The notes below the pieces were generated by a model. That model worked only from the letters and a program-made list of their open reading frames with translations, was not told the origin of the DNA and did not search any database. Positions 10,201 to 23,586 of a stretch of DNA of 27,217 nt are shown here, piece by piece (the stretch's first letter is position 1; each line of letters opens with the position of its first letter). Position numbers and translations under genes: made by a program. The DNA is from Bacteroidales bacterium (GTDB lineage Bacteria > Bacteroidota > Bacteroidia > Bacteroidales > SKPS01): assembly GCA_032250595.1 (NCBI GenBank), contig JAVVFR010000001.1, positions 1-27,217 of the forward strand, written 5' to 3'.

Positions 10201-13200
10201 AGTGGAGCCCTGCTTCAAGTATCACTAATGATCCAACAATTGCTAATCCGTTCGCTATACCTTCAGTAACAACTACCTATACTGTTGCTGTGACAGGTGC
10301 TAACGGATGTACCGGACATGACCAGGTAATAATAACAACATTGCCATTGCCATCAGTTGATGTAGGACCGGATACACTTATTTGTGCCGGATATGCCTAT
10401 GTAATACCAACAGTGGTTTCCGGTAATAGCCCGTTTACTTACCAGTGGAATAACACCGCTACATTGAATGATGGCACTATCCAAAATCCAACAGCATACC
10501 CAATTAGTAATACCAACTACAGTGTTACTGTTACTGATGCTAATGGATGTGTTAATAGTGATAATCTAACTATTAATGTAGTTTCAAATCCGGTTGCCAA
10601 TATCTTAAGTCTAAACACTAACTATTGTGTTGACGCAACCCCGGTAACCCTTACAGCAACACCGACAGGTGGCACGTTCACCATTGATGGCGTGGCTGCT
10701 ACCATTTTCGATCCTGCTGTATTAGGTGTCGGACCTCATACCGTTATTTATAACTACGTAAATACCAATGGTTGTATAGCTGTCGACAGTATGATTGTGA
10801 CAGTAAGAGACCTGCCATCTGTTGATGCTGGCAGTGACCTGCTGGTATGTGCCGGTAATCCAACCAACCTCTATGCAACACCACTGAGTGGAACGTCTCC
10901 TTATTCATACGCATGGAGTCCTGCTGCATCATTGAACAATGCATTTATCCAGGATCCTATTGCTACACCGATGGTAACCACCACTTACACGGTAACATTA
11001 ACAGATGTGTATGGTTGTTCTGCTACTGATGATGTCACTATTTTGACAACCTCTTTCCCTGTAGCTGATGCAGGTAATAACGACACCATTTGTTATGGTG
11101 GATCAACACAGCTTATTGCTTCAGGTGGTAATCAATATCAGTGGGCACCGGCTACCGGACTCAGCAATCCAAATATTGCCAATCCGATCGCATCACCGAT
11201 TGTTACTACAGTATATACAGTCACTGTTACCAGTAACTGTGGTGTAGCCTTCGACTTTGTTGAGATCTACGTCAATCCGTTACCTGCTGTTTCATTCAGC
11301 GGATTAAACCCGGATGTATGTATCGATGATGGCTCGATCACCCTTACCGGTTCACCGGCAGGTGGTACTTTTAGTGGTGTTGGCATCATAGGTAATGTCT
11401 TTGATCCTGCAGTAGCAGGTATTGGAGGCCCCTATACCATTACATACGATTATGTAAATCCTAATGGATGTGCTAATCCGGCAACACAAACTGTTACTGT
11501 TCATGCATTACCAACCATTAGCTTCAGCGGATTGAACACAAGCTACTGTATTAATGGTACAGCGAGTACACTGACAGGCTCACCGGCAGGTGGCATCTTC
11601 TCAGGACCCGGCATCACAGGCAATGTCTTTGATCCGGCAGTGGCCGGTGTTGGAACACATACCATCACTTACACCTATACTGATGGTTACGGATGTGTTA
11701 ACACAACAACACAGCAGACCACTGTTCAAGGACTCTCCGCTGTGACCTTTACAGGCCTGCCAACAGCGATATGTGCTGATGGCAGTGTAGCTACCCTGTA
11801 TGGAAATCCATCCAGCGGAGTATTCTCCGGACCCGGCATAATCGGCAATCTTTTCGACCCGGTTATTGCAGGAGCAGGCACACATAATATAGTTTATACT
11901 ATCTCAGGTAGCGGCTACTGTACTAATGCTGATACCCAAACTGTAATTGTTAATGCACTACCGGTAGTTTCATTCACCGGCCTTGCAGCAGACTACTGTG
12001 CAAATGACGGTATTGTTACTATGACAGGAGTTCCTGCAGGTGGCGTATTCACAGGCAATGCAATATCAGCAAATACATTCGATCCTTCAAATGCAGGTGT
12101 AGGAACACATTCTATATCTTACGCTTACACCGATGGAAACGGATGTAGCAATAGTACAAGCCAGATAACTACTGTCCATGCACTACCAACATTAACTATC
12201 AACGGACTCTCTTCAGTTTACTGTGAGAATGATCCTGCAGTAACACTGTCAGGTACTCCAACAGGAGGCACATTCTCAGGAACAGGCATAACAGGCAACC
12301 AGTTTGATCCGGCTGTAGCCGGTGCAGGTGCTCATACTGTCTATTATACTTATACAGACGGAATGGGATGCACCAATACGATTTCACAACTGACTGTTGT
12401 TAATGCGCTACCTGCTGTTACATTTGCACCATTAGCACCAGTTTGTGGCGGTAGCAGTTCATTTGCCTTAACAGGTGGAAGTCCAACAGGTGGTTCTTAT
12501 AGCGGTAGTGCCGTTGTTTCAGGAAACTTTATCCCGTCAGTCGCAGGACCCGGTTCGCACCTTGTTACTTATACCTATACTTCACCAAGTACCGGTTGTT
12601 CAAACAATGCTACACAGAATCAGGTCGTTAATGTTAACCCTGTTGCCGATGCAGGCATAGACCAAATCATACCATTTGGTACCAGCACATCACTTACAGG
12701 TAATGCTACCGGCGGATCAGGAACATACAGCTATAACTGGACACCAACAGGATCACTGGTGAATGCCAATGTTCAGAATCCAACTACTACCAACCTTACC
12801 GCATCTACTATCTTCGACCTTACCGTTACCGATTTAAGTAATGGCTGTCAGGATAATGACCAGGTAATTGTCTCAGTTATTGGAAGTAGTTTAAGTGTCA
12901 ACATTAATGCTCCGTATACAGCTATCTGTGATGGTGACCAGATCACCTTAACAGCACAGGCTATTGGAGGCAGCGGTGTTTATACTTTCAGCTGGACGTC
13001 AACACCAGGAGGAACCTATCCATCGACTCAGGCAATAACCGTTTCTCCACTTGTAACAACAACCTATACAGTGGCTGTAGATGATGGCTATTCTGTTGAA
13101 ACAGCCAATATCACTATCACAGTGAATAGTCTGCCAACGGTTAGCTTCACCGGCTTACCGGCCAACACTTGTGAAGGCAGTGGTGCTGTGGCCATGTCAG

Positions 13201-15683
13201 GTAGCCCAACAGGTGGTGTCTTCAGTGGCACAGGAGTTAATGGAAATCTGTTCTATCCTATAATTGCAGGTGTAGGTACACACACTATCACATACACTTA
13301 CACAGATTTGAACGGTTGTACCAATACAGCTACTCAGAACATTACAGTACATGCATTGCCAACCCTGACTATCTCAGGAATTGGGACTGATGTATGTATC
13401 AATGATGCTCCGATAACCGTTATTGTTTCACCACAAGGTGGAATATTATCAGGACCCGGTGTCAATAATAACATCTTTGACCCAACGGTTGCAGGTATCG
13501 GAACACATACGATCACTTATACCTATGCTGATAACAACGGATGTATTACATCCACCACACATACAGTAATTGTTCATGGCCTCTCTTCAGTAACATTTAC
13601 CGGATTAGCCAGTGGTTATTGTAATAACGAAGCTCCTGTTACACTTACAGGATATCCTTCAGGTGGTGTGTTCTCAGGAACCGGTATGATAGGTAATGTA
13701 TTTGATCCTTCTGTTGCCAATGGTATACGTACTATCACTTATACTTATGCTGACGGATATGGCTGTATAAGCTCAGCATCACAAAGTACTACTGTTTATC
13801 ACTCACCACAGGCATACTTTGTTGGTCTGGCATCACAATATTGTGAATCTAACGGACCTGTAACACTTCTTGGCAGTGCAGGCGTAGGCGCAGGTACATT
13901 CAGTGGCCCAGGCGTAACCGGTAATATTTTTGATCCGGCAGTTGCTGGGGTAGGAACACATGTGCTATACTATTCTTACACCTCTTACTCAGAGAATCCT
14001 GCAGGTTGTACAACTGTTGGCAGTGATACAGTAACTGTACTGGCAGCGCCATCAGTTAGCATTGCAGCCAGTTCAACAAGTGTTTGTTTGAACGGCAATG
14101 CCATCACATTAACCGGAACACCGTCAGGTGGTACGTTTAGTGGATCAGGTGTAACAGGTAACATATTTGATCCAGCTGCAGCAGGTGCAGGGGTACATAC
14201 GATCTCCTACACCTTCACTGGAGCAAACGGATGCCCCAACACTGCTACTGTTGATATAACAGTACATGCACTACCAACCTTACAAATCAATGGACTGAGC
14301 AGTATCTATTGTATCAATAGTGCTACATCCAGCAATTTGGTTGGTGTACCTTCCGGAGGAACCTTCTCAGGAACCGGTATCATTGGTAATGTATTCTATC
14401 CGTCTACTGCAGGTGTTGGCACCCATTGGATCTATTACACCTACACAGACATGAATGGATGTACTGTTGTTGATTCAGCGATGACCAATGTTGATCCGGG
14501 TCCATCAACATCATTCACCGGACTTGCTCCTTCTTATTGTATCGACGATGCTCCGGCAACATTGAATGGCAGTGGTAATAATGCAGGTACCTTCAGTGGA
14601 CCGGGTATGACAAATAATATATTTGATCCTGCCCAGGCAGGTGCCGGTACCCATACCATTACCTATACATTGGTTAGCCAGACAACAGGATGTTCAGGAA
14701 TCTATACTCAGAATGTTACTGTTAATGCATTACCCACTGTTTCTATTGCAGGACTTGGTACCGACTACTGTATCGATCACGGTAATGTTACCATGACAGG
14801 AACACCATCAGGTGGTGTATTCTCAGGAACCGGTGTCGTTGGTAATACATTTAGCCCAACATCTGCCGGAGTAGGTACCTTTACTGTTACCTATACCTAT
14901 ACTGATCCTAATGGATGTACCAATTCATTCGATCAAACGGTTAATGTACATGCATTACCAGTTGTATCATTCACTGGTTTATCAGCTACATATTGTGTAG
15001 ATGATCCTACTGTATTGCTAACAGGAACACCAAGTGGTGGTGTATTCACCGGCAATGGTGTAGTTGGAAATACATTCGCCCCAGGCCTTGCCCATGCTGG
15101 TGTACATGTAGTCACTTATACATATACAGATGGAAACGGTTGTATCGGATCTTACTCAGATACTGTAGAGGTATTTGCTAATCCTTTTGTGGACCTTGGA
15201 CCTGACCAGGTAATCTGTATCAACCATAAGATCACATTGGATGCAGGTGCAGGATTTGCCTCATACCTATGGTCAACAGGTGAAACTACACAAACCATTC
15301 TTGTGGATGGTAGTGTAATAGGTGTTGGACCTAAGACATACTCCGTAACAGTTACCAATAGCCACGGATGTGTTACTGTAGAGTCAATAATCATTACCGT
15401 TGATCCTTGTGAGGGAATTGATGAAATTGGTGAAGAAACAGCCATTCGTGTATTCCCTAATCCATCAAGAGGTACATTTAACATCCTGTTCAACAACTTT
15501 GAAGATGATGTTACTATGGAAATCCATAATGATCTGGGTCAAATACTTATGACAGATGTCGTAGAGATAATCTCTCCGGTATACGTCAAACAAATTGACC
15601 TCTCTACACAACCCACAGGGGTATACTTCATCAGATTGATGAGCAATGATTTAATACGCGTTGAAAAGATCATTATCAATTAG
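3..15683 (+). CDS. Giant T9SS type A-secreted surface protein / putative adhesin, 5'-truncated (>5226 aa): beta-helix, CARDB-like, lamin-tail, 50 Ig-like repeats, Por_Secre_tail CTD
   Basis: The frame is open from base 3 (TFQSATGDSTDVTVQYAATSS...), so the TTG at 111 in the track is not the real start. It ends in a typical type A CTD (IRVFPNPSRGTFNI...GVYFIRL...EKIIIN, about 15411-15680). Stop TAG at 15681-15683. Confidence 0.95.
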   Translation, partial: TFQSATGDSTDVTVQYAATSSTANWVIGLENINYLTLKNMTIKANGSSYGRVLVINDDVNYLDVSNCAIETSIATSSNFVPIYANGSSDNYSYNTIQNNKIFGGYYGIYWYGNSSNYNINNTFINNDITDFYYYGIYLYYNDNAICQNNQLSNSSASGTVYGIYPYHTYNSSYINNVVIVGGSSTSYGMRLYYGDNNIVDNNIVNVGGTTSYGIYDYYNDHATITNNQVTLAGSSTHYGIYHRGIGTALNPNLIANNTINMIGTGTSTWYGMYLYYSDTTNIYHNTVNIEGGSTTSRGIYVSQGSNINILNNILSLPGGGYAMYISTTAAIANSNNNVLYTTGSSIGYWGGAQTALTDWQTATGFDANSVDFNPALAAPMLNDLTPLNIAVDNIGTPIPTITMDIFGTPRSATTPDAGAIEFTGLAGDLATINGILKNGDCLSNNDSVFITVNNLFGNTVDFSVNPLTVGWEVTGPVNSNGTITVTTGTLAVANDLLIGGDGVDMSATGTYTLTVYVQPNTVNNYSGNDTLNNIFTLEIIDPFFVIPKYIEITNLDSTIVELTAQSTFFPGGALLLTEICQYAASSTGQPASGKPSYLGDDYLEITGVPNSDLSGYSIEKWTSSGTSPNVFHTFPSGTTLSPAGTYLVSTYQGTTSLGDYHQAADVASSYGSSTNSINIIRDASGNIVDVVLYYTGSTIPANAGVTTEWTGPGVNGSSSWGIRLAGPDTDDNTNWIKDTQDPNVLNAGVPLPSAGNISGFTWSHNSVVTSTKPDTIVGPFTTNGLYEYIASYNTPCGILTDTVKINVIIPPYDATIAEILPNTEGCGLGQEAIGVKIANRGSMSITSNLTASYMIAGGSSVVTEPVITTINSGDTINFTFATLADFSVTGADSLFHIIAWTNLLNDTIPANDTATSEVNSLHIPVPPVVNDMAIPTGTQAVIAATSSYDINWYEQATSTVPLYTGPVYTTPVLNNATTYWVSASSGIQVPGQLTTQFTGGTSCGGGFMIDVTALSSDITINAFDLYPASSGTETVNVYYKQGTYNGFGSDPTAWTQEGSYSVNQIALTPTFMALNTEIVIPAGQTYAIYLQYNNAYTSGSYTTFNNTDLEIYTGLAHCSAWDACCEPRVWNGTIYYMAGVDGCESPKVPVTVSMEATATAITPNTSICLGDQIMLEVALTGSTPITMIVTDGTNNDTITGITTPTIAIPVTPTITTTYSVVEVINAYGFSNTSTATVTVTVNPLPVVTADDVEICDGSTAFLNATGSAGTPPYSYQWNNATTLSNPNAKNPLATPSATTTYTVTITDANGCIATDDAVVTVQPVPVADAGTDINICMGTSAQLAATASGGSGTYSSYDWTPAATLDNATIANPLATPSVTTTYTVVVTDNKGCQNADDIVVSVVDVIAGSDQVICYGASANLGVTVAGGSGSYTYLWTPAASLDNAGIQNPVATPTVTTTYTIAVTDNVLGITCSDDVVVTVNPLPTVSFTGLAVEYCIDAPAVTLTGTPAGGIFTGMGISGTTFDPATAGVGGPYTITYTYTDANGCTNSASQQVTINPLPVVSFTGLASGYCIDAPVVTLTGTPAGGVFMGSGISGNDFDPATAGVGIHNITYTYADINGCVNSETQSVEVYPLPIATAIPDFYVCLGSPAQLDVTVTGGTAPYSYQWTPADSLDDATLKNPIVNNTNSETYTVVVTDQNGCQATDAVYVNVIPDPVANAGNDVAICFGESTQLQASGGDVYVWSPTTGLSNPNISNPVASPTATTVYSVTVTSTCGTASDYVLVTVNPLPGVNLGSDIDLCYGSSANLNAVVSGAAPFAYAWTPTTDLSDPTISNPVATPLSNTTYTVLVTDVNGCQNSDDIYININPLPTVNAKVNVNDEYASVCPGGTVSLYANATPSTVTYQWSPSAYINGFPNNQNVVSMPLSSSVDFSVIATDANGCKNYDTVNVSVMDVDAGVDAEICLNASTQLNAVVTNGITPYSYSWLPATGLSDAAIANPVASPLSTTTYYLTVTDDYGTSCIDSVTVTVNPLPSVTVADIDLCISNSAMLNAMVTGGTPGYTYNWTPTNDLNDPTIANPMASPTVTTTYNILVTDSKGCTATDDATVTLHALPSVNAGPDAIISSGANHPLMATGSGGQSPYSYLWSPASSLSDATIQDPIASPTVTTTYTVTLTDVWGCTATDDVVISTVNLPIANAGPDRTICIYDSAQLNASGGITYVWSPTTGLSNPNIYNPMASPAVTTTYTVTVTGPYGSAVDWMVVNVNPLPIVSFIGLGGPYCEDDPAIVPLTGTPAGGTFSGPGITGNDFSPLAAGPGNHTIVYSYSDPNGCTNTDTNYVLVNPLPVIDAGTDIAICANDNAVLSATPTGYVSYNWNSNFGISSIYDPNNSTTTVSPYATTTYTVSVTDINGCTNSDDVVVTVNPLPVVTSSGLAGPYCIDNPLVTMTGTPPGGIFTGPGVVGNDFAASAAGAGTHVITYTYTDANGCTNTHDQTVTVNPLPVVTSTTFSGSDIVDIEVQYDYFANWVGDDTRFEIVDALGTPVFSHQATAGNQYYTTSLTLPAGNYTFKAYDNFGDGGITYYNINTTDNTYSGAFTYGYYTETPFTVNGVSHHCINGPVVVHSATPTGGIFTGNGIVNTNEFDPAVAGVGQHQITYTYTDSNGCTNSIGEIANVNALTPTTFSGLAAMYCVDAAAVTLTGTPPGGTFSGTGIIGNDFGPATAGVGIWDIIYTYVDANGCTNADTQTTEVVPLPVLAITNLATGYCIDAAPVTLNATPAGGTFSGNGITGNDFDPAVAGVGVHTITYTYTDANGCTNTITQNTEVHALPIVTIVGLDAGFCLDATPVTLVGSPSGGIFSGTGVSGNIFDASVAGVGVHTITYTYTDTYGCVNDTSQNVTVYSLPTADAWNDAQICIGDSINLYVTASGGALPYSYAWTPVAGLDDPNIVNPVASPALSTVYTVVVTDANGCIATDSVFIEVSDIQISTTDVDICYGSSTQLNIAVTGGIAPYSYSWTPAAGLSSTTIVDPIADPTATTVYTVMVTDNIGCTSSATLTVTVNPLPVVSFSGLAMNYCIDAPAVTLTGSPAGGIFTGPGISGNTFDPAVAGTGTHSITYTYTDANGCINSETQTTSVNPLPTAAFTGLAAGYCVDAATATLTGIPAGGTFSGPGISGNSFDPASAGVGIHTIMYTYTDGNGCTDSYSETVEVYALPIVTLNTISDICVNVAPVTLTGGVPTGGLYSGTGVSGGMFDPAVAGVGQHFITYTYTDANGCVNFAIDTITVHATTPLTFATPPAICNNAMPYTLVQATPAGGIYSGPGVSGGQFDPMAVSGPGLYTLTYTYTNTEGCISTINRAITVLDTPTPVAGTSTTVCANTTTPLNVTVTGGGGSYTYQWSPASSITNDPTIANPFAIPSVTTTYTVAVTGANGCTGHDQVIITTLPLPSVDVGPDTLICAGYAYVIPTVVSGNSPFTYQWNNTATLNDGTIQNPTAYPISNTNYSVTVTDANGCVNSDNLTINVVSNPVANILSLNTNYCVDATPVTLTATPTGGTFTIDGVAATIFDPAVLGVGPHTVIYNYVNTNGCIAVDSMIVTVRDLPSVDAGSDLLVCAGNPTNLYATPLSGTSPYSYAWSPAASLNNAFIQDPIATPMVTTTYTVTLTDVYGCSATDDVTILTTSFPVADAGNNDTICYGGSTQLIASGGNQYQWAPATGLSNPNIANPIASPIVTTVYTVTVTSNCGVAFDFVEIYVNPLPAVSFSGLNPDVCIDDGSITLTGSPAGGTFSGVGIIGNVFDPAVAGIGGPYTITYDYVNPNGCANPATQTVTVHALPTISFSGLNTSYCINGTASTLTGSPAGGIFSGPGITGNVFDPAVAGVGTHTITYTYTDGYGCVNTTTQQTTVQGLSAVTFTGLPTAICADGSVATLYGNPSSGVFSGPGIIGNLFDPVIAGAGTHNIVYTISGSGYCTNADTQTVIVNALPVVSFTGLAADYCANDGIVTMTGVPAGGVFTGNAISANTFDPSNAGVGTHSISYAYTDGNGCSNSTSQITTVHALPTLTINGLSSVYCENDPAVTLSGTPTGGTFSGTGITGNQFDPAVAGAGAHTVYYTYTDGMGCTNTISQLTVVNALPAVTFAPLAPVCGGSSSFALTGGSPTGGSYSGSAVVSGNFIPSVAGPGSHLVTYTYTSPSTGCSNNATQNQVVNVNPVADAGIDQIIPFGTSTSLTGNATGGSGTYSYNWTPTGSLVNANVQNPTTTNLTASTIFDLTVTDLSNGCQDNDQVIVSVIGSSLSVNINAPYTAICDGDQITLTAQAIGGSGVYTFSWTSTPGGTYPSTQAITVSPLVTTTYTVAVDDGYSVETANITITVNSLPTVSFTGLPANTCEGSGAVAMSGSPTGGVFSGTGVNGNLFYPIIAGVGTHTITYTYTDLNGCTNTATQNITVHALPTLTISGIGTDVCINDAPITVIVSPQGGILSGPGVNNNIFDPTVAGIGTHTITYTYADNNGCITSTTHTVIVHGLSSVTFTGLASGYCNNEAPVTLTGYPSGGVFSGTGMIGNVFDPSVANGIRTITYTYADGYGCISSASQSTTVYHSPQAYFVGLASQYCESNGPVTLLGSAGVGAGTFSGPGVTGNIFDPAVAGVGTHVLYYSYTSYSENPAGCTTVGSDTVTVLAAPSVSIAASSTSVCLNGNAITLTGTPSGGTFSGSGVTGNIFDPAAAGAGVHTISYTFTGANGCPNTATVDITVHALPTLQINGLSSIYCINSATSSNLVGVPSGGTFSGTGIIGNVFYPSTAGVGTHWIYYTYTDMNGCTVVDSAMTNVDPGPSTSFTGLAPSYCIDDAPATLNGSGNNAGTFSGPGMTNNIFDPAQAGAGTHTITYTLVSQTTGCSGIYTQNVTVNALPTVSIAGLGTDYCIDHGNVTMTGTPSGGVFSGTGVVGNTFSPTSAGVGTFTVTYTYTDPNGCTNSFDQTVNVHALPVVSFTGLSATYCVDDPTVLLTGTPSGGVFTGNGVVGNTFAPGLAHAGVHVVTYTYTDGNGCIGSYSDTVEVFANPFVDLGPDQVICINHKITLDAGAGFASYLWSTGETTQTILVDGSVIGVGPKTYSVTVTNSHGCVTVESIIITVDPCEGIDEIGEETAIRVFPNPSRGTFNILFNNFEDDVTMEIHNDLGQILMTDVVEIISPVYVKQIDLSTQPTGVYFIRLMSNDLIRVEKIIIN
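3462..15410 (+). repeat. Tandem array of 50 Ig-like repeats of about 75-84 aa (20 type A, 28 type B, 2 terminal variants)
   Basis: Counted by hand from the translation. Type A: ADAG.D..IC.G....L...GG...Y.W.P...L.......P.A.P..TT.Y.V.VTD.NGC. Type B: LP.VSF.GL...YC.D...VTLTG.P.GG.FSG.G..GN.FDPA.AG.G.H.ITYTYTD.NGC. Confidence 0.92.
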
Positions 15684-15737: not shown

Positions 15738-15819
15738 AAAAAGTATATTTAAAATGTTTTCGTTAATTACTTATTACTAATCGTTAATAAATAAATGCAA
15801 AAAATATTTTTCATTATTG

Positions 15820-15827
15820 TACATTTG
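15820..15827 (+). promoter_or_regulatory. Bacteroidota housekeeping promoter, -7 element (TACATTTG)
   Basis: Exact match to TAnnTTTG, 28 nt upstream of ATG 15856. No clear -33 TTTG. Confidence 0.55.
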
Positions 15828-15855
15828 TTATGAAAACAAAACCTGTATGAACAGT

Positions 15856-16701
15856 ATGATATCAATAAATCAATTAAAGCGTATTGCCACCCAAATCCGT
15901 CGTGATATTTTAAGAATGGTACATGGGGCAGCATCAGGTCATCCCGGTGGGTCGTTAGGATGTGCTGATTTTTTAACAGTGCTCTATTTCTCTGTTATGC
16001 AACCCAACGCCAATGATTTTCGTATGGATGGTAAAGATGAAGATATGTTTTTCTTGTCTAACGGACATATTTCACCCTTGTTTTACAGTGTATTGGCACG
16101 ATATGGTTACCTCCCTATAGAAGAATTAAGTACTTTCAGAAAAATTGGCTCACGATTACAGGGTCATCCTGCTATTACTGATCATCTTCCAGGGATAAGG
16201 GTTGCAAGCGGTTCACTTGGACAAGGGCTGTCGGTGGCGATCGGAGCTGCTCTGGCTAAAAAACAAAACAATGACAATAAACTTATTTATTGCCTTTGCG
16301 GTGATGGAGAACTGCAGGAAGGACAGATATGGGAAGCAGCGATGTTTGCTGCACACCACAAGGTAGACAACCTGATATTAACAGTTGATTATAATCGTAA
16401 GCAAATCGACGGTGCAACAGATGACGTTATCTCATTGGGTAACCTTGAAGCAAAGTGGCACGCTTTCGGATGGGAAGTGATATCATGCAACGGTAATGCA
16501 GTAGATGAACTCCTTTATACCCTCTCACATGCTAAAAAGTTATCAGGCAATAAAAAACCTGTGTGCCTCCTTATGAAAACCGAAATGGGAATGGGAGTTG
16601 ATTTTATGACCGGCACGCATAAATGGCATGGCGTTGCACCCAACGACGAAGAATTGCAAAACGCATTAAGCCAGTTAGAAGAGACGATGGGAGATTATTA
16701 A
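15856..16701 (+). CDS. tkt: Transketolase, N-terminal (TPP-binding) subunit
   Basis: SGHPGGSLG, LSNGH, LQGHP, GSLGQGLS, the TPP motif GDGELQEG...N and HKWHG. The start is probably ATG 15856 or 15847, because the track's 15817 start overlaps the promoter motif. Confidence 0.95.
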   Translation: MISINQLKRIATQIRRDILRMVHGAASGHPGGSLGCADFLTVLYFSVMQPNANDFRMDGKDEDMFFLSNGHISPLFYSVLARYGYLPIEELSTFRKIGSRLQGHPAITDHLPGIRVASGSLGQGLSVAIGAALAKKQNNDNKLIYCLCGDGELQEGQIWEAAMFAAHHKVDNLILTVDYNRKQIDGATDDVISLGNLEAKWHAFGWEVISCNGNAVDELLYTLSHAKKLSGNKKPVCLLMKTEMGMGVDFMTGTHKWHGVAPNDEELQNALSQLEETMGDY

Positions 16702-16765: not shown

Positions 16766-18148
16766 ATGATAAAATATACCACTGTCGTACTTTTTATTGT
16801 TGCTTTCGGGTTCAATATTTCTGAACCACTCCATGGACAAAACAGGGAAAGAGAGGTCCCGCTCAACAGGGTATTAATTATTTTTGATGCCTCCAATTCT
16901 ATGTATGGCTATTGGCAAAGTGACCGAAAAATAACCATTGCACGTAATCTGCTGGTGCGGTTAGTGGATAGCTTGAAAAATGTTGATAACGTTGAACTGG
17001 CACTACGTGTGTATGGTCACCTTAAATACTACCCTCCACAGGATTGTGACGACACCAAACTGGAGGTTCCCTTTGCACCATCAAACACTGAACGGATCAA
17101 AGATAAACTAAAGTCTATTGTCCCAAAAGGAACAACTCCTATTGCACGATCACTTGAAGCAGCAGTTAATGACTTCCCTCCGTGTGACAACTGCCGGAAT
17201 ATTATTGTGCTCATCACCGATGGGATCGAAGAGTGCGATGGTGACCCTTGTGCTGTATCCAGACAGCTGCAGAAATCCGGAATAATATTAAAACCATTTA
17301 TTATTGGTATCGGACGCGACTTCAAAGCCGACTTCGATTGCGTTGGAAAGTATTTTGATGCCTCCAGTGAACATCTCTTCAGACAAGCATTGAATGTTGT
17401 TATTTCCCAGGCTCTAAACTCAACCACAGCACAAGTGAACCTATTGGACGATTATAACAGGGCACTGGAGACAAACGTTGCCATGACACTCTATGACCAT
17501 TTCTCAGGAGAAGTAAAGTATAATTTCATCCATACCCTAAACAGTTATGGAGTCCCTGATACCATAGTTATTGATCCACTTACTATTTACGATATTGAAG
17601 TGCATACCATTCCCCCGGTGAGAAAAGACAGTGTTAAGCTGCTTGCAGGAAAACATAATGTTATTCCTATTCCTACTCCACAAGGCTTCCTGGATTTACG
17701 GGTCGGCGGAACGAATCATCTGTATAAAGACCTGTTATGTATAGTGAAACAACCCGGTATTGAAACTATTTTACACGTTCAGCCTTTTAATGCAAAAGAG
17801 AAATACCTTACCGGCTTATATAATCTTGAAATCCTTACTCTGCCCAGAATTGTCCTTGATGCCATTGAGATAAAACAGAATCATACTACGGAGATAGTAA
17901 TCCCTGTTCCGGGCCTGGCAAGAATTTCTTATCCTGCCAGAGGATTTGGTAACCTGTTCTGGAAAAATGGTAACACGCTGATTAATATCTACCGGCTCAA
18001 CGAAAATGCAACCAGCGAATCAATAGTTTTACAACCGGGTGAATATAGTATTGTGTTTAGAGCTAAGTATGCACCACGTACATATCATACAATATATAAG
18101 TCTTTTACAATTGATTCAGGAAAATCAACAAATGTTCAAATAAAATAG
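16766..18148 (+). CDS. Exported von Willebrand factor type A (VWA) domain protein with intact MIDAS
   Basis: Signal peptide ending PLHG-Q. MIDAS residues DASNS, GTTP and ITDG. C-terminal beta-rich half with no T9SS CTD. Confidence 0.88.
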   Translation: MIKYTTVVLFIVAFGFNISEPLHGQNREREVPLNRVLIIFDASNSMYGYWQSDRKITIARNLLVRLVDSLKNVDNVELALRVYGHLKYYPPQDCDDTKLEVPFAPSNTERIKDKLKSIVPKGTTPIARSLEAAVNDFPPCDNCRNIIVLITDGIEECDGDPCAVSRQLQKSGIILKPFIIGIGRDFKADFDCVGKYFDASSEHLFRQALNVVISQALNSTTAQVNLLDDYNRALETNVAMTLYDHFSGEVKYNFIHTLNSYGVPDTIVIDPLTIYDIEVHTIPPVRKDSVKLLAGKHNVIPIPTPQGFLDLRVGGTNHLYKDLLCIVKQPGIETILHVQPFNAKEKYLTGLYNLEILTLPRIVLDAIEIKQNHTTEIVIPVPGLARISYPARGFGNLFWKNGNTLINIYRLNENATSESIVLQPGEYSIVFRAKYAPRTYHTIYKSFTIDSGKSTNVQIK

Positions 18149-18155
18149 CAAAAGG

Positions 18156-19115
18156 GTGAGAAAAAAATACAGTTATACTGAAAAAATTGACACGCGTTCA
18201 GGTTTTGGTGACGCATTGACTATTTTGGGTGAAAAGAACGATAAAGTCATAGGATTATGTGCAGATCTCACAGGATCGTTGAAAATGAATACATTTAAGG
18301 AATGTTTCCCTGACAGGTTCATTCAGACTGGCATTGCAGAAGCCAACATGATTGGCATCGCTGCCGGCCTTGCTACCGGAGGTTTTATTCCGTTTGCTGC
18401 AACATTTGCTAATTTTGCAACATCACGTGTCTATGACCAGATTAGACAGGTAGTTGCCTATTCCAAAAAAAATGTAAAAATCTGTGCTTCCCATGCCGGA
18501 TTGACCCTTGGTGAAGACGGTGCCACACATCAGGCGCTAGAAGATATTGGATTGATGAAGATGCTTCCCAACATGACCGTTATCAACACCTGTGATTACA
18601 ATCAGACTATGGCAGCCACTATGGCGGTAGCCATCCATGAAGGCCCTGTATATTTAAGATTTGGCAGGCCAAAAGTGCCCAATTTTATCCCAAAAGAGTC
18701 TCCTTTTACCATTGGTAAAGCCATTATGCTAAATGAAGGAAATGATATTTCAATTTTTGCTACCGGACATCTGGTTTGGGAAGCTGTTGAAGCAGGAGAA
18801 ACCCTCCATGCCATGGGTATCGATGCCGAAATTATTAATATTCATACCATTAAACCTTTAGATACTGATGCTGTCTTATCTTCAATAGAAAAAACAAAGT
18901 GTGCTGTTATCGCAGAAGAGCATATGAAAAATGGCGGATTAGGAGATAGCATTGCACAGGTGACATCAGAAAACCTTCCCGTACCACTGGAATTTATTGC
19001 TGTAGATGATACCTTCGGGGAGAGTGGAAAACCAGGCGAGTTGCTAAAAAAGTATGGTTTGTTATCGCAAAATATCGTTGAGGCTGCAATAAAAGTATTA
19101 AAAAGGAAAGGGTGA
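18156..19115 (+). CDS. tkt: Transketolase, C-terminal subunit (pyrimidine-binding and C-terminal domains)
   Basis: GTG start. Motifs DTRSGFG, GIAEANMIGIAAGLA, GEDGATHQALED, GPVYLRFGR, HTIKPLD and EEH...GGLG. Confidence 0.95.
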   Translation: MRKKYSYTEKIDTRSGFGDALTILGEKNDKVIGLCADLTGSLKMNTFKECFPDRFIQTGIAEANMIGIAAGLATGGFIPFAATFANFATSRVYDQIRQVVAYSKKNVKICASHAGLTLGEDGATHQALEDIGLMKMLPNMTVINTCDYNQTMAATMAVAIHEGPVYLRFGRPKVPNFIPKESPFTIGKAIMLNEGNDISIFATGHLVWEAVEAGETLHAMGIDAEIINIHTIKPLDTDAVLSSIEKTKCAVIAEEHMKNGGLGDSIAQVTSENLPVPLEFIAVDDTFGESGKPGELLKKYGLLSQNIVEAAIKVLKRKG

Positions 19116-19127
19116 AACCGGCATTGT

Positions 19128-19676
19128 ATGAATGATACTTCCGATAAAGAAATACTAACCCTTTTTAAATCTGAGGAAACAAGGGAAGATGCCTTTTGTT
19201 TACTGTTGGGCAAATATCAAAAAAGAGTTTATTGGCATGTTCGCAGGATGGTCATTGACCATGAAGATGCCAATGATATTACACAGAATGTCTTTGTTAA
19301 AATCTGGAAAGGACTTATTAATTTCAGAGAAGAGTCGATGCTCTTCTCATGGATCTATCGTATTGCCACCAACGAAAGTATCACCTTCATCAAACAAAAA
19401 CAACGTAACACCACTATTTCTATTGAAGATATCGATGGGTTTTACCCTGACAGCAATTCATCTGACAGCCAGATGTCGAGTGGTGATATTGAGCGGAAAT
19501 TACATAAAGCAATCATGTCACTTCCTGAAAAACAACGCATTGTCTTCAATTTACGCTACTATGACGAAATGCCTTATGCTGAAATGTCATTGGTATTGAA
19601 AACATCAACAGGAGCACTAAAAGCCTCTTATCATTTAGCACTAAAGAAAATCGAGAAAATTCTGGCCTCAGATTAA
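19128..19676 (+). CDS. ECF-family RNA polymerase sigma-70 factor
   Basis: 182 aa with only region 2 (DANDITQNVFVKIWK...FSWIYRIATN) and region 4 (LPEKQRIVFNLRYYDEMPYAEMS...GALKASYH). Confidence 0.95.
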   Translation: MNDTSDKEILTLFKSEETREDAFCLLLGKYQKRVYWHVRRMVIDHEDANDITQNVFVKIWKGLINFREESMLFSWIYRIATNESITFIKQKQRNTTISIEDIDGFYPDSNSSDSQMSSGDIERKLHKAIMSLPEKQRIVFNLRYYDEMPYAEMSLVLKTSTGALKASYHLALKKIEKILASD

Positions 19677-19702
19677 ACCTTGCAGTAAAAAAACTATCAT
19701 AA
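19675..19702 (+). promoter_or_regulatory. Possible ECF-type promoter overlapping the sigma stop codon (AAACCTT-N15-TCATAA)
   Basis: Resembles the sigmaE-type GGAACTT-N16-TCAAA layout and lies 15 nt upstream of the anti-sigma ATG. Single imperfect instance. Confidence 0.3.
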
Positions 19703-19717
19703 GAGTGTTAAGAAAAA

Positions 19718-21259
19718 ATGAAACACAAAAATGACATACCAGAGACATCATTGCCCGAAGCATTAAAAGCTTTAGGTAAACGGAATATATATACCGTTCC
19801 GGATGGCTATTTCGATACACTACAGGAGGATATCTTGTCGAAAGTATCTTCTATCCCTGTTAGAAAAAAAGGCATTCTTTATACACTGACCCAAAATCCA
19901 TACCGTGCCATCGCTGCATCAATATTGCTATTGGTTTTTAGCGGATTGACCTATGCCCTTGTCACGCAAATCATTCTTCCCGAAATCAGAGAAAACCGAT
20001 TGCCTTCAGAAAAAGCAGAAAACAAAGCTGAAAAAATCAATAGTGACAGTGATATCTCCAATGCTTTTGTCGTTACCGGCGACTCTACGAATACATCAGA
20101 TGAATCAACACCTCCATATGCATCCATAGGTGACCCGTATCCGGATATCTTTACTGCACAAACTAAAGAAAGCAGCACCTCTTCCCGGGAAAAAATACCA
20201 TTCACCGGTTTACCGGGGTATTCTTCCGGCAACAATACCGATGAACCACCTAATTATGCAGCGCAGGAAAAATCTGCCTACACATCGAAACCAGTATCCT
20301 TCACTACCCTGAATGACACTATGGTATGCAAAGGTCAGATTGTTAATTATAAAGTAAATACCAACAAACCAAACCTACTGTTTACCTGGAGCATTGACGG
20401 CAAGATTATTGAACAACGCAGCCGTGGTAATGAACTATATGTTAATACAGAATATTTAACGTATGGCAGCCATATCGTTAATGTTGCCATTACTTCAAGA
20501 CAACACAATGAAGTTGTCAACAATCAAAATGTTACACTGAAGGTTATTCCTAAACCCTCCCCCATAAAAGGGGATTTGAAAATATGTGGATATGATCAGG
20601 TTGTATTAAGTGCCGGGCAAAGAAATCCAAACTTCCAATACCTTTGGTCAAACGGTGCCAGGAATACCTCCATAAAAGTCACAAAATCAGGTAAATATTG
20701 GGTAACCATTGCTGCCGGAAATGGGGAAGCCTGCAGTGTTACCGATACTTTCAATGTTACCGTTATGCCAACACCGATAGTTGAACTCGGCACATCCCCT
20801 TCTATCTGTTTAGGAGATAACGTGAAACTTGGTATAAAAAATCCTTCTGACCAATACACTTATAAGTGGTATCCCACAGGAGAAACTTCACCTTCCATTG
20901 TGTTTACTCCTGACGAACCCGGGAAAAACATAATAAAAGTAGGAGTTACCGCATGTAAGATCCATAAAGATCAAATAACGATTAACGTTATCGATTGTAA
21001 TATTGAGATTCCTAATGTGATAACACCCAATGGCGATGGCATCAACGATTATTTTGTCATTAAAGGTATTGACCATTATAGCAAACGTCATCTCATTGTA
21101 AATGACCGAAACGGTACTGTTGTATATGAAAACTCTGATTATCAAAACAATTGGGATGGACAGCAACTGCAAAATGGCACATATTTTTATATCCTAACGC
21201 TTTCGACCCCCGGTGGCAAAAGCACAGAGAGAAGCGGTGTTGTAAGGATACTCCGTTAA
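19718..21259 (+). CDS. Putative anti-sigma factor: N-terminal VPDGYF motif, one TM helix, S/T/P/E linker, 3 Ig-like domains, T9SS type B CTD (CHU_C / gliding motility-associated)
   Basis: 41 nt downstream of the ECF sigma. YTVPDGYFDTLQEDIL at aa 25-40, hydrophobic segment at aa 64-87, CTD IPNVITPNGDGINDYFVI...YQNNWDG...GTYFYIL...G.V.ILR at aa 429-513. The anti-sigma role is inferred from position and motif. Confidence 0.8.
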   Translation: MKHKNDIPETSLPEALKALGKRNIYTVPDGYFDTLQEDILSKVSSIPVRKKGILYTLTQNPYRAIAASILLLVFSGLTYALVTQIILPEIRENRLPSEKAENKAEKINSDSDISNAFVVTGDSTNTSDESTPPYASIGDPYPDIFTAQTKESSTSSREKIPFTGLPGYSSGNNTDEPPNYAAQEKSAYTSKPVSFTTLNDTMVCKGQIVNYKVNTNKPNLLFTWSIDGKIIEQRSRGNELYVNTEYLTYGSHIVNVAITSRQHNEVVNNQNVTLKVIPKPSPIKGDLKICGYDQVVLSAGQRNPNFQYLWSNGARNTSIKVTKSGKYWVTIAAGNGEACSVTDTFNVTVMPTPIVELGTSPSICLGDNVKLGIKNPSDQYTYKWYPTGETSPSIVFTPDEPGKNIIKVGVTACKIHKDQITINVIDCNIEIPNVITPNGDGINDYFVIKGIDHYSKRHLIVNDRNGTVVYENSDYQNNWDGQQLQNGTYFYILTLSTPGGKSTERSGVVRILR

Positions 21260-21297
21260 CCCTTCCGTAAATTTTAGCATGAAGATTCTTTACAATA

Positions 21298-21330
21298 TTG
21301 CTACGAATAGGTTTATTGTTTTTAACTTCG
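21298..21330 (+). promoter_or_regulatory. Bacteroidota housekeeping promoter candidate for pnuC-nadR
   Basis: TTG at 21298-21300 and TAACTTCG at 21323-21330 (one mismatch to TAnnTTTG). Confidence 0.5.
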
Positions 21331-21367
21331 CCTTCTGAAATCAAACTAGTATTTATCACAACGAGGC

Positions 21368-21988
21368 ATGTTTTCACAGATAATTCATTATTTGACTGCG
21401 CACTATATCGAGGTAGCAGGCTTTATCCTTGGGATCGGTTATGTGCTTTTGGCGATGAAGCAAAATGTCTGGTGTTGGATATTGGGTATCGGTAACGTCA
21501 TCCTCTATATAATTGTTTTTTATGACAGCGCCCTTTATGGTGATATGATGCTGCAGATTTTTTACCTCTTTATGAGTTTTTACGGACTGTATTCCTGGTT
21601 AACCGTAAAAAAAACTGTTTCAACAAAGAGTGGCAGTGCTATCTCAACAACCTCCAAAAAGGTTTGGGCAGGTATCTTGATTTTTGTTATTGTGATCAGT
21701 ATATCAGGAGGCTATCTGCTCTCATTTACCGACAACACAATTCCCTATTGGGATGGAATAACAACCGCGCTGGGACTAGCTGCTACATGGATGACAGCAA
21801 AGAAACTCCTTGAAAACTGGTTGGTTTGGATATTTACCGACTTATTATGTACTGTTTTATATTTTTATAAATCACTCTACCCTACATCAATATTCTACTT
21901 AATAATGTCGATACTGGCAATAATAGGATATTATCGTTGGCGAAAAGAGATAAATAACCATGAAACGCATAGCAATAACAGGGCCTGA
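21368..21988 (+). CDS. pnuC: Nicotinamide riboside transporter PnuC
   Basis: Multi-TM 206 aa protein with KQNVWCWILG, PYWDGITTALGLAATWMTAKKLLENWLVWI and GYYRW. Overlaps a NadR-type kinase gene. Confidence 0.92.
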   Translation: MFSQIIHYLTAHYIEVAGFILGIGYVLLAMKQNVWCWILGIGNVILYIIVFYDSALYGDMMLQIFYLFMSFYGLYSWLTVKKTVSTKSGSAISTTSKKVWAGILIFVIVISISGGYLLSFTDNTIPYWDGITTALGLAATWMTAKKLLENWLVWIFTDLLCTVLYFYKSLYPTSIFYLIMSILAIIGYYRWRKEINNHETHSNNRA

Positions 21989-22472
21989 ATCAACAGGAAA
22001 ATCAGTATTGGCAGCATCACTGGCCTTACACTATCAAACAGTGTGGTCGCCGGAATATGCGCGAAGTTATCTCACAAAGAAACACGGATCCTACTCCCCT
22101 GCTGATGTAGTGCATATTGCCAAGCAACAGTTTGATCAGAACAATACAATGTCACTACAAGCCCAACAATACTTTTTCGCTGACACAGAGATGCTTGTCA
22201 CAAAAATCTGGTATCAATTTGTATTTGGGAAAGTACATCCTGTCATCAACCGGTTATTTCATCAGCAACAGTTTGACCTTTACCTGCTATGTGATATTGA
22301 CCTGCCATGGGAGCCTGATCCACTAAGAGAACATCCCGGCCAGCGAAAAGAACTCTTTAATATGTACCAACAACAATTATCGGATCACAATCTGCCCTTT
22401 GTCAGAGTGAAAGGCTTCGGAAAACTACGGTTGCAATCAGCAATAAACTCTATAGATACGTTTTTTTTATAG
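21960..22472 (+). CDS. nadR: Stand-alone NadR-type (AAA_28) nicotinamide riboside kinase-like protein
   Basis: Walker A GPESTGKS, PEYAR, ADT and DLPWEPDPLRE. 29-nt overlap with pnuC. Lacks the HTH and adenylyltransferase domains. Confidence 0.85.
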   Translation: MKRIAITGPESTGKSVLAASLALHYQTVWSPEYARSYLTKKHGSYSPADVVHIAKQQFDQNNTMSLQAQQYFFADTEMLVTKIWYQFVFGKVHPVINRLFHQQQFDLYLLCDIDLPWEPDPLREHPGQRKELFNMYQQQLSDHNLPFVRVKGFGKLRLQSAINSIDTFFL

Positions 22473-22512
22473 TATCTTTAACCATATTTTACTATTTCAA
22501 AAAAAATCGATT

Positions 22513-23586
22513 ATGAAACTACGTATTCACACCCTCTTAATCATACTTTTATGGTTCCCATCCGTTTTGATTCACGGACAAATCACCATCACCTCATCCG
22601 ATATGCCCGATATCAACGATACTGTTAGACTGAGTAACGCACTTACAGCAGGCTCCATTGATTTCACACTTACCGGGACCAACCATACCTGGGACTTTTC
22701 ATCTCTTGTTCCCGTTTCTCAAAGAATAGATACATTTGTGTCAGTGCTCTCCACACCAATAATGTATTATCCGTCATTTGTGCTCCATGCCTCATATGGC
22801 ATCAAAGGAAACGAATTCAATATGCTGGGATTCGACCTGAAAGATGTGTATGATTTCTATAAAAAAACCACCACTAAATATCAAAATGTCGGATTTGCCG
22901 CTACTGTTAACGGCATCCCCTTCCCTGTACGGTACGATGATTATGATGTTCTTTTCCGGTTTCCTATGACGTATGGCAACATTGATTCCTCGGAAGCCAG
23001 CTTTGCCATGCAGATCCCTATGCTTGGATATTATTCCAATGAAAAAAAACGACATAACCATGTAGATGGATGGGGAACCCTCATCACCCCTTATGGCACT
23101 TTTCAAACTATTCGCGTAAAATCGATGGTTACCAATACAGATTCTATTTTTATCGACAGCCTCGGAACAGGGATGCCACCGGTCACAACACACTACACAG
23201 AATACAAATGGCTGGCCAACGGCTTTCCGGTTCCTTTGCTCACTATTGTCGACAGAGTTGTAGGTGATGAGTTTTTTTATATCGATAGCAATAGAAACAT
23301 TGGTAATAATACTATTCATACAGTCACGGCAAATAATACGTTAACCATTTATCCTAACCCTGCAAAAAATAGTATTGTATTAAATTTCTCTCAAAAAATC
23401 ACTGGAGATATCATGGTAGCACTATTTTCCACCACAGGAAAAAAGGTATATAGCAATACCTTCAGTGGTAGTGTTGACAACATTGCTATTTCAAAAAAAG
23501 AGTATAACATATCTCCGGGAATTTATATGTTGATTGTCAAAACAAAAACATATACATATAAATCAAAAATCGTTTTTCAACACTAA
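22513..23586 (+). CDS. T9SS type A cargo protein of unknown function
   Basis: Signal peptide ending LIHG-Q, beta-rich body (QITITSSDMP...TWDFSSL) and CTD LTIYPNPAKN...GIYML...KIVFQH. Confidence 0.88.
   Translation: MKLRIHTLLIILLWFPSVLIHGQITITSSDMPDINDTVRLSNALTAGSIDFTLTGTNHTWDFSSLVPVSQRIDTFVSVLSTPIMYYPSFVLHASYGIKGNEFNMLGFDLKDVYDFYKKTTTKYQNVGFAATVNGIPFPVRYDDYDVLFRFPMTYGNIDSSEASFAMQIPMLGYYSNEKKRHNHVDGWGTLITPYGTFQTIRVKSMVTNTDSIFIDSLGTGMPPVTTHYTEYKWLANGFPVPLLTIVDRVVGDEFFYIDSNRNIGNNTIHTVTANNTLTIYPNPAKNSIVLNFSQKITGDIMVALFSTTGKKVYSNTFSGSVDNIAISKKEYNISPGIYMLIVKTKTYTYKSKIVFQH

Follow-up and report, generated by a model that had tools for sequence, protein, structure and literature searches.

A putative anti-sigma factor with the tail of a type IX cargo: a possible decoy linking an ECF sigma factor to secretion in Bacteroidales

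Why should a protein encoded directly behind an extracytoplasmic function (ECF) sigma factor carry both an inner-membrane anchor and the export signal of a type IX secretion system (T9SS) cargo? The question is raised by a 27,217-nucleotide stretch of DNA from a Bacteroidales bacterium (assembly GCA_032250595.1, contig JAVVFR010000001.1, positions 1 to 27,217 of the forward strand). We call this whole stretch the window; it is contig C68 of a metagenome-assembled genome (MAG) of an uncultured sediment bacterium, with 453 contigs and a completeness of 75%. An earlier note on this DNA had described an ECF sigma gene next to a gene for a membrane protein with a type B export signal, and both open reading frames (ORFs) are present. 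We lean, on balance and with modest confidence, towards the view that they encode a genuine ECF sigma/anti-sigma pair in which the anti-sigma factor is a decoy cargo that couples cargo transcription to type IX secretion. The interpretation in the earlier note is supported in its anti-sigma identity and its topological conflict. Its conditional signal peptidase I site is not conserved across the long-form families, and the pair looks more like a controller of cargo supply than a reporter that tunes the secretion machine. The features on which the argument turns are the following.

19128..19676, + strand: ECF (group IV) sigma-70 factor, 182 aa (Sigma70_r2, Sigma70_r4_2, TIGR02937)
19718..19906, + strand: residues 1-63 of the putative anti-sigma factor, cytoplasmic and predicted to bind sigma, with one 'N[PV][YF]xVPxGYFxxL' module (conservation, predicted complex)
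19907..19981, + strand: residues 64-88, single transmembrane helix, a signal anchor with the N-terminus in (Kyte-Doolittle peak 2.2, AlphaFold helix 61-92)
19982..20302, + strand: residues 89-195, disordered periplasmic tether rich in S/T/P/E/N (composition, pLDDT)
20303..21001, + strand: residues 196-428, three immunoglobulin (Ig)-like beta-sandwich domains (AlphaFold pLDDT 73-94, Ig_7 match)
21002..21259, + strand: residues 429-513 and the stop codon, type B T9SS C-terminal domain (CTD), CHU_C (PF13585, TIGR04131)

The sigma factor matches PF04542 (Sigma70_r2, E 7.8e-14), PF08281 (r4_2, E 4.8e-13) and TIGR02937 (E 4.8e-27, 94.6 bits against a cut-off of 42.9). It consists of regions 2 and 4 only and falls in the 180-200 aa size range, as ECF (group IV) factors do; the best match in a search of NCBIfam subfamilies, TIGR02985, lies under its cut-off. 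Orthologues with 44-57% identity occur across the order in the same operon; the operon in the window encodes no kinase. Directly downstream, after a gap of 41 nt, lies the ORF at 19718-21259 (+), whose 513-aa product is built from an N-terminal segment, a transmembrane helix, a tether, three beta-sandwich domains and a CTD.

The layout of this product agrees with the soluble start of about 63 residues, single helix and long S/T/P/E linker described in the earlier note, as judged from hydrophobicity, composition and an AlphaFold2 model computed from an eight-row alignment. The hydrophobicity profile has one peak, at residues 64-88, the flank on its N-terminal side carries a net charge of +4, and the start Met is the sole Met among the first 120 residues. 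A cytoplasmic N-terminal segment followed by one transmembrane helix is the arrangement of a single-pass anti-sigma factor. It is not that of a protein with a short cleavable Sec signal peptide, as a conserved 63-residue segment stands ahead of a helix of about 25 residues. The 108 residues behind the helix are enriched in S, P, E and T, residues 93-192 are modeled as disordered (pLDDT, the predicted local distance difference test, below 35), and among relatives the tether is poorly conserved and varies in length. The model places beta-sandwich domains at about 200-277, 288-350 and 362-425, with an Ig_7 match at 353-389, and folds the CTD at 429-511 (pLDDT 80-94). The earlier note had three Ig domains, each stapled by Cys residues; the three sandwiches are there, and of the six Cys residues (204, 290, 339, 364, 413 and 427) two pairs lie inside domains 2 and 3. 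The CTD matches CHU_C over residues 429-509 (E 4.9e-23, 81.5 bits against a cut-off of 27) and the type B model TIGR04131 (E 2.5e-12, 46.8 bits against a cut-off of 35), and it sits at the extreme C-terminus, ending 4 residues before the stop, as in type B cargo. No match to the outer-membrane beta-barrel family OMP_b-brl_2 was found in the protein, whose C-terminus is made of the Ig domains and CHU_C. The conflict between an anchor and an export tag in one protein is real and conserved.

Within the genus, conservation of the helix is strong and includes the T-Y-A of the motif 'LTYA|L' that the earlier note had proposed as a conditional signal peptidase I site. That proposal does not extend beyond the genus: a small-x-small site is missing from the unrelated helices of the long forms in the other four families. 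The helix and the juxtamembrane 'P-[AES]-[IV]-R-[EQ]' (19907-19990; alignment A1, columns 75-105) are conserved at the genus level far above the tether, a pattern in the alignment that may point to a dedicated partner within the membrane or to a site recognised by a protease.

The case for an anti-sigma factor is carried by the first 63 residues. An exhaustive phmmer search with residues 1-100 returned 994 proteins at E <=1e-3, while a word-indexed homologue search with residues 1-110 returned only one near-identical protein. Within the order of the window the module is present in 257 of 401 sampled genomes, nearly always as a single copy and mostly in ORFs of 115-220 aa, and at every locus examined its gene lies directly behind the orthologous sigma gene, often after the transketolase C-subunit gene. 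It also stands behind the same sigma in 62 named Bacteroidota genomes. Across hundreds of genomes, conservation in the family peaks at residues 10-45, with V27, P28, Y31, F32 and L35 among the conserved module residues. When the sigma factor and residues 1-63 were submitted to complex prediction, three runs gave an interface score ipSAE (interaction prediction score from aligned errors) of 0.77, and each of the three controls gave 0.00. The predicted interface sets partner residues 12-51 on sigma residues 16-65 (region 2) and 121-179 (region 4), so that the segment is predicted to bind both sigma regions. Homology to the short proteins in the same operon position and the predicted complex both support the anti-sigma role that the earlier note had proposed, and the comparison of loci supports the assignment of the 513-aa protein to the anti-sigma slot of an order-wide sigma operon.

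The module itself belongs to no described family. Pfam and NCBIfam gave no family for residues 1-100 or for the short forms, and the described anti-sigma families (zf-HC2/RsiW, RseA_N and FecR among them) were not matched. A profile search of the PDB gave nothing significant, its best match being the N-terminus of RseA at E 0.095, and the Protein Atlas search with residues 1-110 gave only Bacteroidota clusters without a name. The earlier note had allowed that the true start might lie near residues 45-60, which would turn the helix into an ordinary signal peptide; this is excluded because residues 10-45 are conserved and lie at the predicted sigma interface. An in-frame TTG at codon 39, from which the helix would become a long signal peptide, was rejected as the start on the same grounds.

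Most of the top phmmer matches are of another kind, Bacteroidota proteins of 250-450 aa with 4-7 tandem copies of 'N[PV][YF]xVPxGYFxxL', one transmembrane helix and an acidic tail. This tandem VPxGYF family (P0004, P0006, L046:2374-4209) is large, with its 4-7 copies placed before the helix. At one locus (L046:2374-4209) such a protein is encoded directly downstream of an ECF sigma, and its match to NF052375 ('antisigma') is sub-threshold. An anti-sigma factor with several sigma-binding repeats would be unusual and might hold several sigma molecules at once.

Could the fusion of such a module to a cargo tail be an error of sequencing or assembly? A frameshift, a misassembly or a chimeric contig, which the earlier note had also raised, might be suspected in so fragmented a MAG, and we give that explanation practically no credence. 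A 23,479-base contig assembled independently from another sediment run spans positions 18700-21400 unbroken, showing 53 substitutions and no indel within the ORF. In the same genus the N-terminal module occurs in 5 of 6 other genomes; in four of these it heads a complete protein of 505-525 aa that aligns over its full length with 36-40% identity, and in the fifth the gene ends at a contig edge. Proteins ending in CHU_C (E 1e-15 to 1e-25) also follow the orthologous sigma in four further families of the order. The search proposed in the earlier note for proteins with VPxGYF, a transmembrane helix and CHU_C beside ECF genes thus found five families in all, together with the public MAG 'Bacteroidetes bacterium HGW-Bacteroidetes-6' (PHDB01000020.1). 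In every long form at least 270 residues separate the transmembrane helix from the CTD. Colinear relatives in the genus, long forms elsewhere and the independent contig have already refuted the artefact.

The short-form operon encodes the sigma factor, a VPxGYF anti-sigma factor of 111-190 aa and a secreted periplasmic protein of about 155 aa. The third product is helical and carries a conserved 'LTxEEAQxFWPxY'-like motif (alignment A5; for example L008:757-1233 and L009:1957-2418). Pfam and NCBIfam assign it to no family and show only a weak, Spy/CpxP-like similarity to LTXXQ (E 0.04). Of 27 short-form loci drawn from different families, 26 have the third gene, as do 60 of 61 loci of short or mid length in named genomes (including Prevotella, Butyricimonas, Tannerella, Pedobacter, Pontibacter and Chitinophagaceae), which makes 86/88 when combined; none of the 12 long-form loci has it. 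A profile of the third protein found no match in genomes G000 and G211 or in three near-complete sister genomes, and in G019, G054 and G191 it gave matches at the level of the signal peptide only (E about 0.003-0.006), as compared with E 1e-59 in two short-form positive controls. Short and long forms share the N-terminal module and helix, an orthologous sigma (44-57%), frequently a place next to transketolase genes, and a promoter that overlaps the sigma stop codon. They differ on the periplasmic side. In the short form the anti-sigma factor ends in an acidic periplasmic tail and its partner is a secreted protein with a gene of its own; the long form has neither and instead has the tether, Ig domains and CHU_C. 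The ectodomain and the periplasmic partner are mutually exclusive, and for this reason we argue that, in the long form, the ectodomain serves as the input module. The short three-gene system of Bacteroidota is itself apparently uncharacterised.

Where the ectodomain came from can be read from its paralogues. The genome encodes a T9SS, with SprA (2,414 bits), at least 4 PorP/SprF proteins and at least 17 CHU_C proteins, and the anti-sigma CTD ranks fourth among the genome's 21 CHU_C matches, at 84 bits. In a tree of the 16 best CHU_C domains of the genome, it falls in a clade (97/93 support) with the CTDs of proteins on contigs C414 and C419, both encoded behind the motif described next, and on C111 and C16. 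The nearest CTD is that of the C414 protein at 47% identity, and two CHU_C genes that adjoin PorP/SprF genes fall in the other clade. For the Ig domains the best paralogue in the genome is the region just before the CTD of the same C414 protein (25.6% over 234 aa, E 5e-10, colinear). Together, the clade of the CTD and the C414-like Ig region make the C-terminal 310 residues look like a captured cargo tail.

A candidate promoter motif may connect the sigma factor to such cargo. The regions upstream of short-form sigma genes share TAAAC[CT]-N16-GTC[AT][AT]A. When the -10 element may start with either G or A (TAAACY-N16-[GA]TCWWA), the motif also sits at the junction of the sigma and anti-sigma genes at no fewer than 29 of 37 loci, counting long and short forms, with its -35 element overlapping the TAA stop codon of the sigma gene, and it lies upstream of sigma in at least 10 loci. 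In the window the two positions are occupied as follows.

18851..18878, + strand: candidate promoter P1, TAAACC-N16-GTCTTA, an exact pattern match inside the transketolase C-subunit gene, about 250 nt before the sigma start
19674..19701, + strand: candidate promoter P2, -35 TAAACC and -10 ATCATA, with the -35 overlapping the sigma stop and the end 16 nt before the anti-sigma ATG

P1 overlies the codons for IKPLD..AV, and the Val codon is GTC in all nine loci with Val at that position, although GTC makes up 11.5% of the Val codons of the window genome. The sole strain difference within P2 is 19700 T>A, which falls in the -10 element and keeps the consensus. An AAC-type -35 and a GTC/CGT-type -10 element at the sigma factor's own locus constitute, in silico, the pattern of ECF autoregulation. 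The motif differs from the consensus of the Bacteroidota primary sigma. It also differs from the CGT-type ECF motif that is reported to precede T9SS genes in F. psychrophilum (PMC9723704). Nine ECF loci are visible in the window genome and only the sigma/anti-sigma locus has the motif; a generic promoter of other sigmas was accordingly rejected for this genome, with none of the 8 other visible ECF loci carrying it. In the sister genomes the motif might still be a generic ECF promoter.

Which genes would such a promoter serve? Genome counts were obtained from explicit pattern scans set against a reversed-pattern control. The window genome contains the pattern 11 times, and six copies are intergenic as compared with one for the control. 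In all six cases an exported or membrane protein is encoded 16-76 nt further on; the genes are listed here by contig.

C68 (the window): the anti-sigma factor itself
C414: a 796-aa CHU_C protein
C419: a 155-aa secreted protein and a 645-aa CHU_C protein
C439: a protein of more than 953 aa that ends at the contig edge
C21: an MbnP and di-haem cytochrome c peroxidase pair
C347: a lipoprotein

The truncated C439 protein aligns colinearly over 923 residues, at 50% identity, with CHU_C proteins of 1,825 and 1,809 aa in two sister species. Orthologues of the C414, C439 and C21 proteins (50-65% identity) are also encoded behind the motif in three sister species, where the motif set further includes a type A CTD cargo, a TonB-dependent receptor, Fib_succ_major/PKD proteins and a primary-sigma-like gene. 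CHU_C cargo lies behind the motif in both of the other long-form families tested, and pattern and control counts in long-form genomes were 15 versus 7, 18 versus 6 and 9 versus 4. Five short-form genomes show no enrichment of the pattern. Their intergenic motif copies precede exported proteins, and none of the 39 CHU_C genes of three short-form genomes has the motif before it. The functional link to the T9SS suspected in the earlier note gains indirect backing in that the motif precedes genes for type B cargo, and no CTDs or Ig domains in the genome resemble those of the ectodomain more closely than the ones in this cargo.

The motif was also seen upstream of an RpoD-type gene of about 288 aa in sister genomes, at 20-30 nt (G006:C27:13711-13738 and G003:C6:18391-18418) or about 170 nt (G002:C27:6757-6784). 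It recalls E. coli, which has sigma-E-dependent rpoD and rpoH promoters.

The pieces can be assembled into a proposed mechanism. The pair would belong to an envelope system found throughout Bacteroidota, made up of the sigma factor, a single-pass VPxGYF anti-sigma factor and a small periplasmic partner. In this lineage and a few others the short periplasmic tail and the partner gene would have been replaced by a tether carrying a copy of the C-terminal module, three Ig domains and a type B CTD, of the cargo family that the sigma factor is predicted to transcribe. Residues 1-63 would hold the sigma factor at the inner membrane, and the tether and Ig domains would present the CTD at the outer membrane; by our estimate some 100 disordered residues can reach up to about 35 nm when fully extended, and each Ig domain adds about 4 nm. 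The type B branch of the T9SS would then engage the tethered CTD, with free cargo competing, and engagement would strain or expose the anti-sigma factor. A cut in the tether or the juxtamembrane region, followed by regulated intramembrane proteolysis, would free the sigma factor, which would turn on CHU_C cargo operons and other envelope genes. Through P2, which overlaps its own stop codon, the sigma factor would also drive synthesis of new anti-sigma and so reset the switch. If free cargo competes with the tethered decoy, then cargo synthesis would be matched to spare secretion capacity. The architecture, the homologies, the exclusion of the partner gene, the predicted sigma binding and the motif with its gene set were established in silico, whereas T9SS engagement, the proteolysis and the sign of the response are the parts of the decoy-cargo reading that we infer. 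Its most specific version, in which the T9SS samples decoy against free type B cargo, each engagement destroys one anti-sigma and releases one sigma, and spare capacity thereby meters transcription, is a tentative suggestion that we would not rate as probable. If true, it would amount to a FlgM-like checkpoint that is anchored in the membrane and depends on proteolysis, and that arose by capture of the C-terminal module of the regulated cargo, which took the place of a periplasmic partner.

A number of observations weigh against this proposal. SprA would have to act on a substrate that is anchored in the inner membrane at its N-terminal end, and no conserved cleavage motif was found in the tether. 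Sigma binding rests on the score of a model. The motif is assigned to this sigma factor from its position and conservation, and ECF promoters can look alike. The exact pattern exceeds the control by just 2-3 fold in the long-form genomes, and some sister-genome copies adjoin other ECF-like sigma genes (G006:C1:11800-16427, G002:C2:18027-18306), one of them before tandem PKD/Fib_succ_major genes and another before a TonB-dependent receptor, so part of the motif gene set may belong to other sigmas. No PorP/SprF gene lies beside the anti-sigma gene, which is followed by pnuC and AAA_28 genes, and the four PorP/SprF genes are on other contigs. None of the RNA runs searched contained the locus, which appeared in DNA sediment runs only. 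In the sigma tree the long forms fall in three clusters, and a single clade is not rejected (approximately unbiased test, p-AU 0.44), which is compatible with a fusion that arose once or up to three times. Finally, no T9SS component gene was found behind the motif. This last result also tells against a reporter that tunes the T9SS machine, and makes the pair look like a controller of cargo supply instead.

Other readings of the same architecture have to be considered. The plainest is that the protein is ordinary T9SS cargo with a very long signal sequence, cut by signal peptidase I, for example after LTYA, and that its proximity to the sigma gene has no regulatory meaning. The T-Y-A motif is kept in the genus, the TTG at codon 39 could yield a shorter precursor, and the CTD and Ig domains do resemble those of true cargo. 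Yet the most conserved stretch of the protein, residues 10-45, is homologous to proteins in the anti-sigma slot that have no ectodomain and forms the predicted sigma interface, the small-x-small motif is absent outside the one family, and a conserved helix of about 25 residues is unlike a signal-peptide core. We therefore regard ordinary cargo as very improbable.

Two further readings accept the anti-sigma factor and differ in what its CTD does. It might act as a static tether spanning the envelope, like Dma, with a CTD that is exported once and docks on a PorP/SprF-type outer-membrane protein, in which case it would report perturbation of the outer membrane or surface, or a contact with the Ig domains, and not secretion traffic. 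The architecture has a parallel in Dma1 (anti-sigma segment, transmembrane helix, disordered region, outer-membrane-directed C-terminus), which spans both membranes by means of its disordered region (PMC10927553). Type B CTDs remain attached to PorP-like proteins (PMC9143113). The genome has its PorP/SprF proteins, and the minimum of 270 residues between helix and CTD holds in every long form. In the static arrangement, however, the polypeptide would stay threaded through the translocon or the outer membrane, which Dma avoids because its barrel inserts from the periplasmic side; the lack of an adjacent PorP/SprF gene does not fit docking, and an ectodomain that copies a cargo family behind the sigma factor's own promoter is left unexplained. 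We consider a static tether unlikely. Slightly more unlikely still, in our judgment, is a sensor that works in the periplasm only. Here, as with PorA, the CTD would never be translocated but would bind a chaperone or a CTD receptor located in the periplasm or the inner membrane and take over the role of the third gene, and a backlog of unsecreted type B cargo would titrate that partner and change the stability of the anti-sigma factor. The PorA CTD activates PorY in the periplasm, also when tethered to the inner membrane (section 2.8) and in T9SS mutants (PMC12152298). The strict exclusion between ectodomain and third gene, and the weak Spy/CpxP-like similarity of the latter, point the same way. 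On the other side, a tether of about 100 residues with three Ig domains reaches further than a partner at the inner membrane needs, the CTD scores as a fully canonical secretion signal by its rank in the genome, and no candidate partner was identified.

The decoy-cargo anti-sigma factor can be placed among known systems. In the full-text literature we found no paper that describes an anti-sigma factor with a T9SS CTD, and to our knowledge the PorA-PorXY-SigP cascade of P. gingivalis is the only worked example of a type IX CTD that signals to a sigma factor. There too a T9SS CTD is both secretion signal and regulatory input to an ECF sigma factor (PMC7712824, PMC12152298). PorA, however, is a type A cargo that is cleaved and free, and its target is the histidine kinase PorY; SigP controls T9SS machinery genes. 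The window protein instead has a type B CTD fused to the anti-sigma factor, uses no two-component system and has cargo and envelope genes as predicted targets. With Dma it shares a Bacteroidota ECF sigma factor held by an N-terminal segment, one inner-membrane helix, a long disordered periplasmic region, a C-terminal module destined for the outer membrane and a proposed proteolytic release of sigma. It differs in ending in three Ig domains and a type B CTD where Dma ends in an eight-stranded OMP_b-brl_2 barrel, and in a route that would be the T9SS and not BAM (the beta-barrel assembly machinery). The partner sigmas of Dma are ECF21. The N-terminal module of the window protein has no family in Pfam or NCBIfam. 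With Dma1/Das1 and PorA-PorY as precedents, an anti-sigma factor that reaches across the envelope and a CTD that signals become less paradoxical.

Two further comparisons can be made. In the FlgM/sigma-28 system, too, an export signal sits on the anti-sigma factor, and it is the signal for the very system that secretes the products of the sigma factor's target genes; the anti-sigma gene has its own sigma-dependent promoter. The parallel is a conceptual one. FlgM is soluble and exported whole, whereas the window protein is anchored in the membrane and would therefore need cleavage or would act while tethered. The pairs RseA/sigma-E, RsiW/sigma-W and RsiV/sigma-V share its cytoplasmic N-terminus, single transmembrane helix and extracytoplasmic sensing part, and the site-1 and then site-2 cleavage of their anti-sigma factors is the release logic expected here. 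By sequence the window protein shows no membership of these families, and its sensing part is a cargo module and not a PDZ-protease or ligand-binding domain.

If the decoy-cargo reading is true, a sensor that copies the tail of its cargo would be a one-protein way of matching cargo production to secretion, which is so far undescribed, and the Dma type of envelope-spanning anti-sigma factor would be extended to a second outer-membrane route. The locus supplies testable parts in the form of a 63-aa module without a described family, a promoter consensus and a small predicted regulon. A natural comparison is available between short forms, which come with a periplasmic partner, and long forms, which end in a CTD. 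Cultured Pedobacter, Pontibacter and Butyricimonas have the short three-gene system and would be suitable for work on the basic circuit.

The remainder of the window can be described briefly. A giant ORF at 3-15683 encodes more than 5,200 aa and runs past the 5' end of the window. Genes for the N-terminal (15817-16701) and C-terminal (18156-19115) subunits of transketolase flank the gene for a 460-aa secreted von Willebrand factor A-domain protein at 16766-18148. The C-subunit gene is separated from the sigma operon by 12 nt, a synteny common to many families of the order. Downstream of the anti-sigma gene, 21368-23586 encodes a PnuC-type nicotinamide riboside transporter, an AAA_28 (NadR-like) ATPase and a 357-aa protein with a type A CTD (Por_Secre_tail), and the same trio lies 3' of the long anti-sigma gene in sister genomes and in G019.

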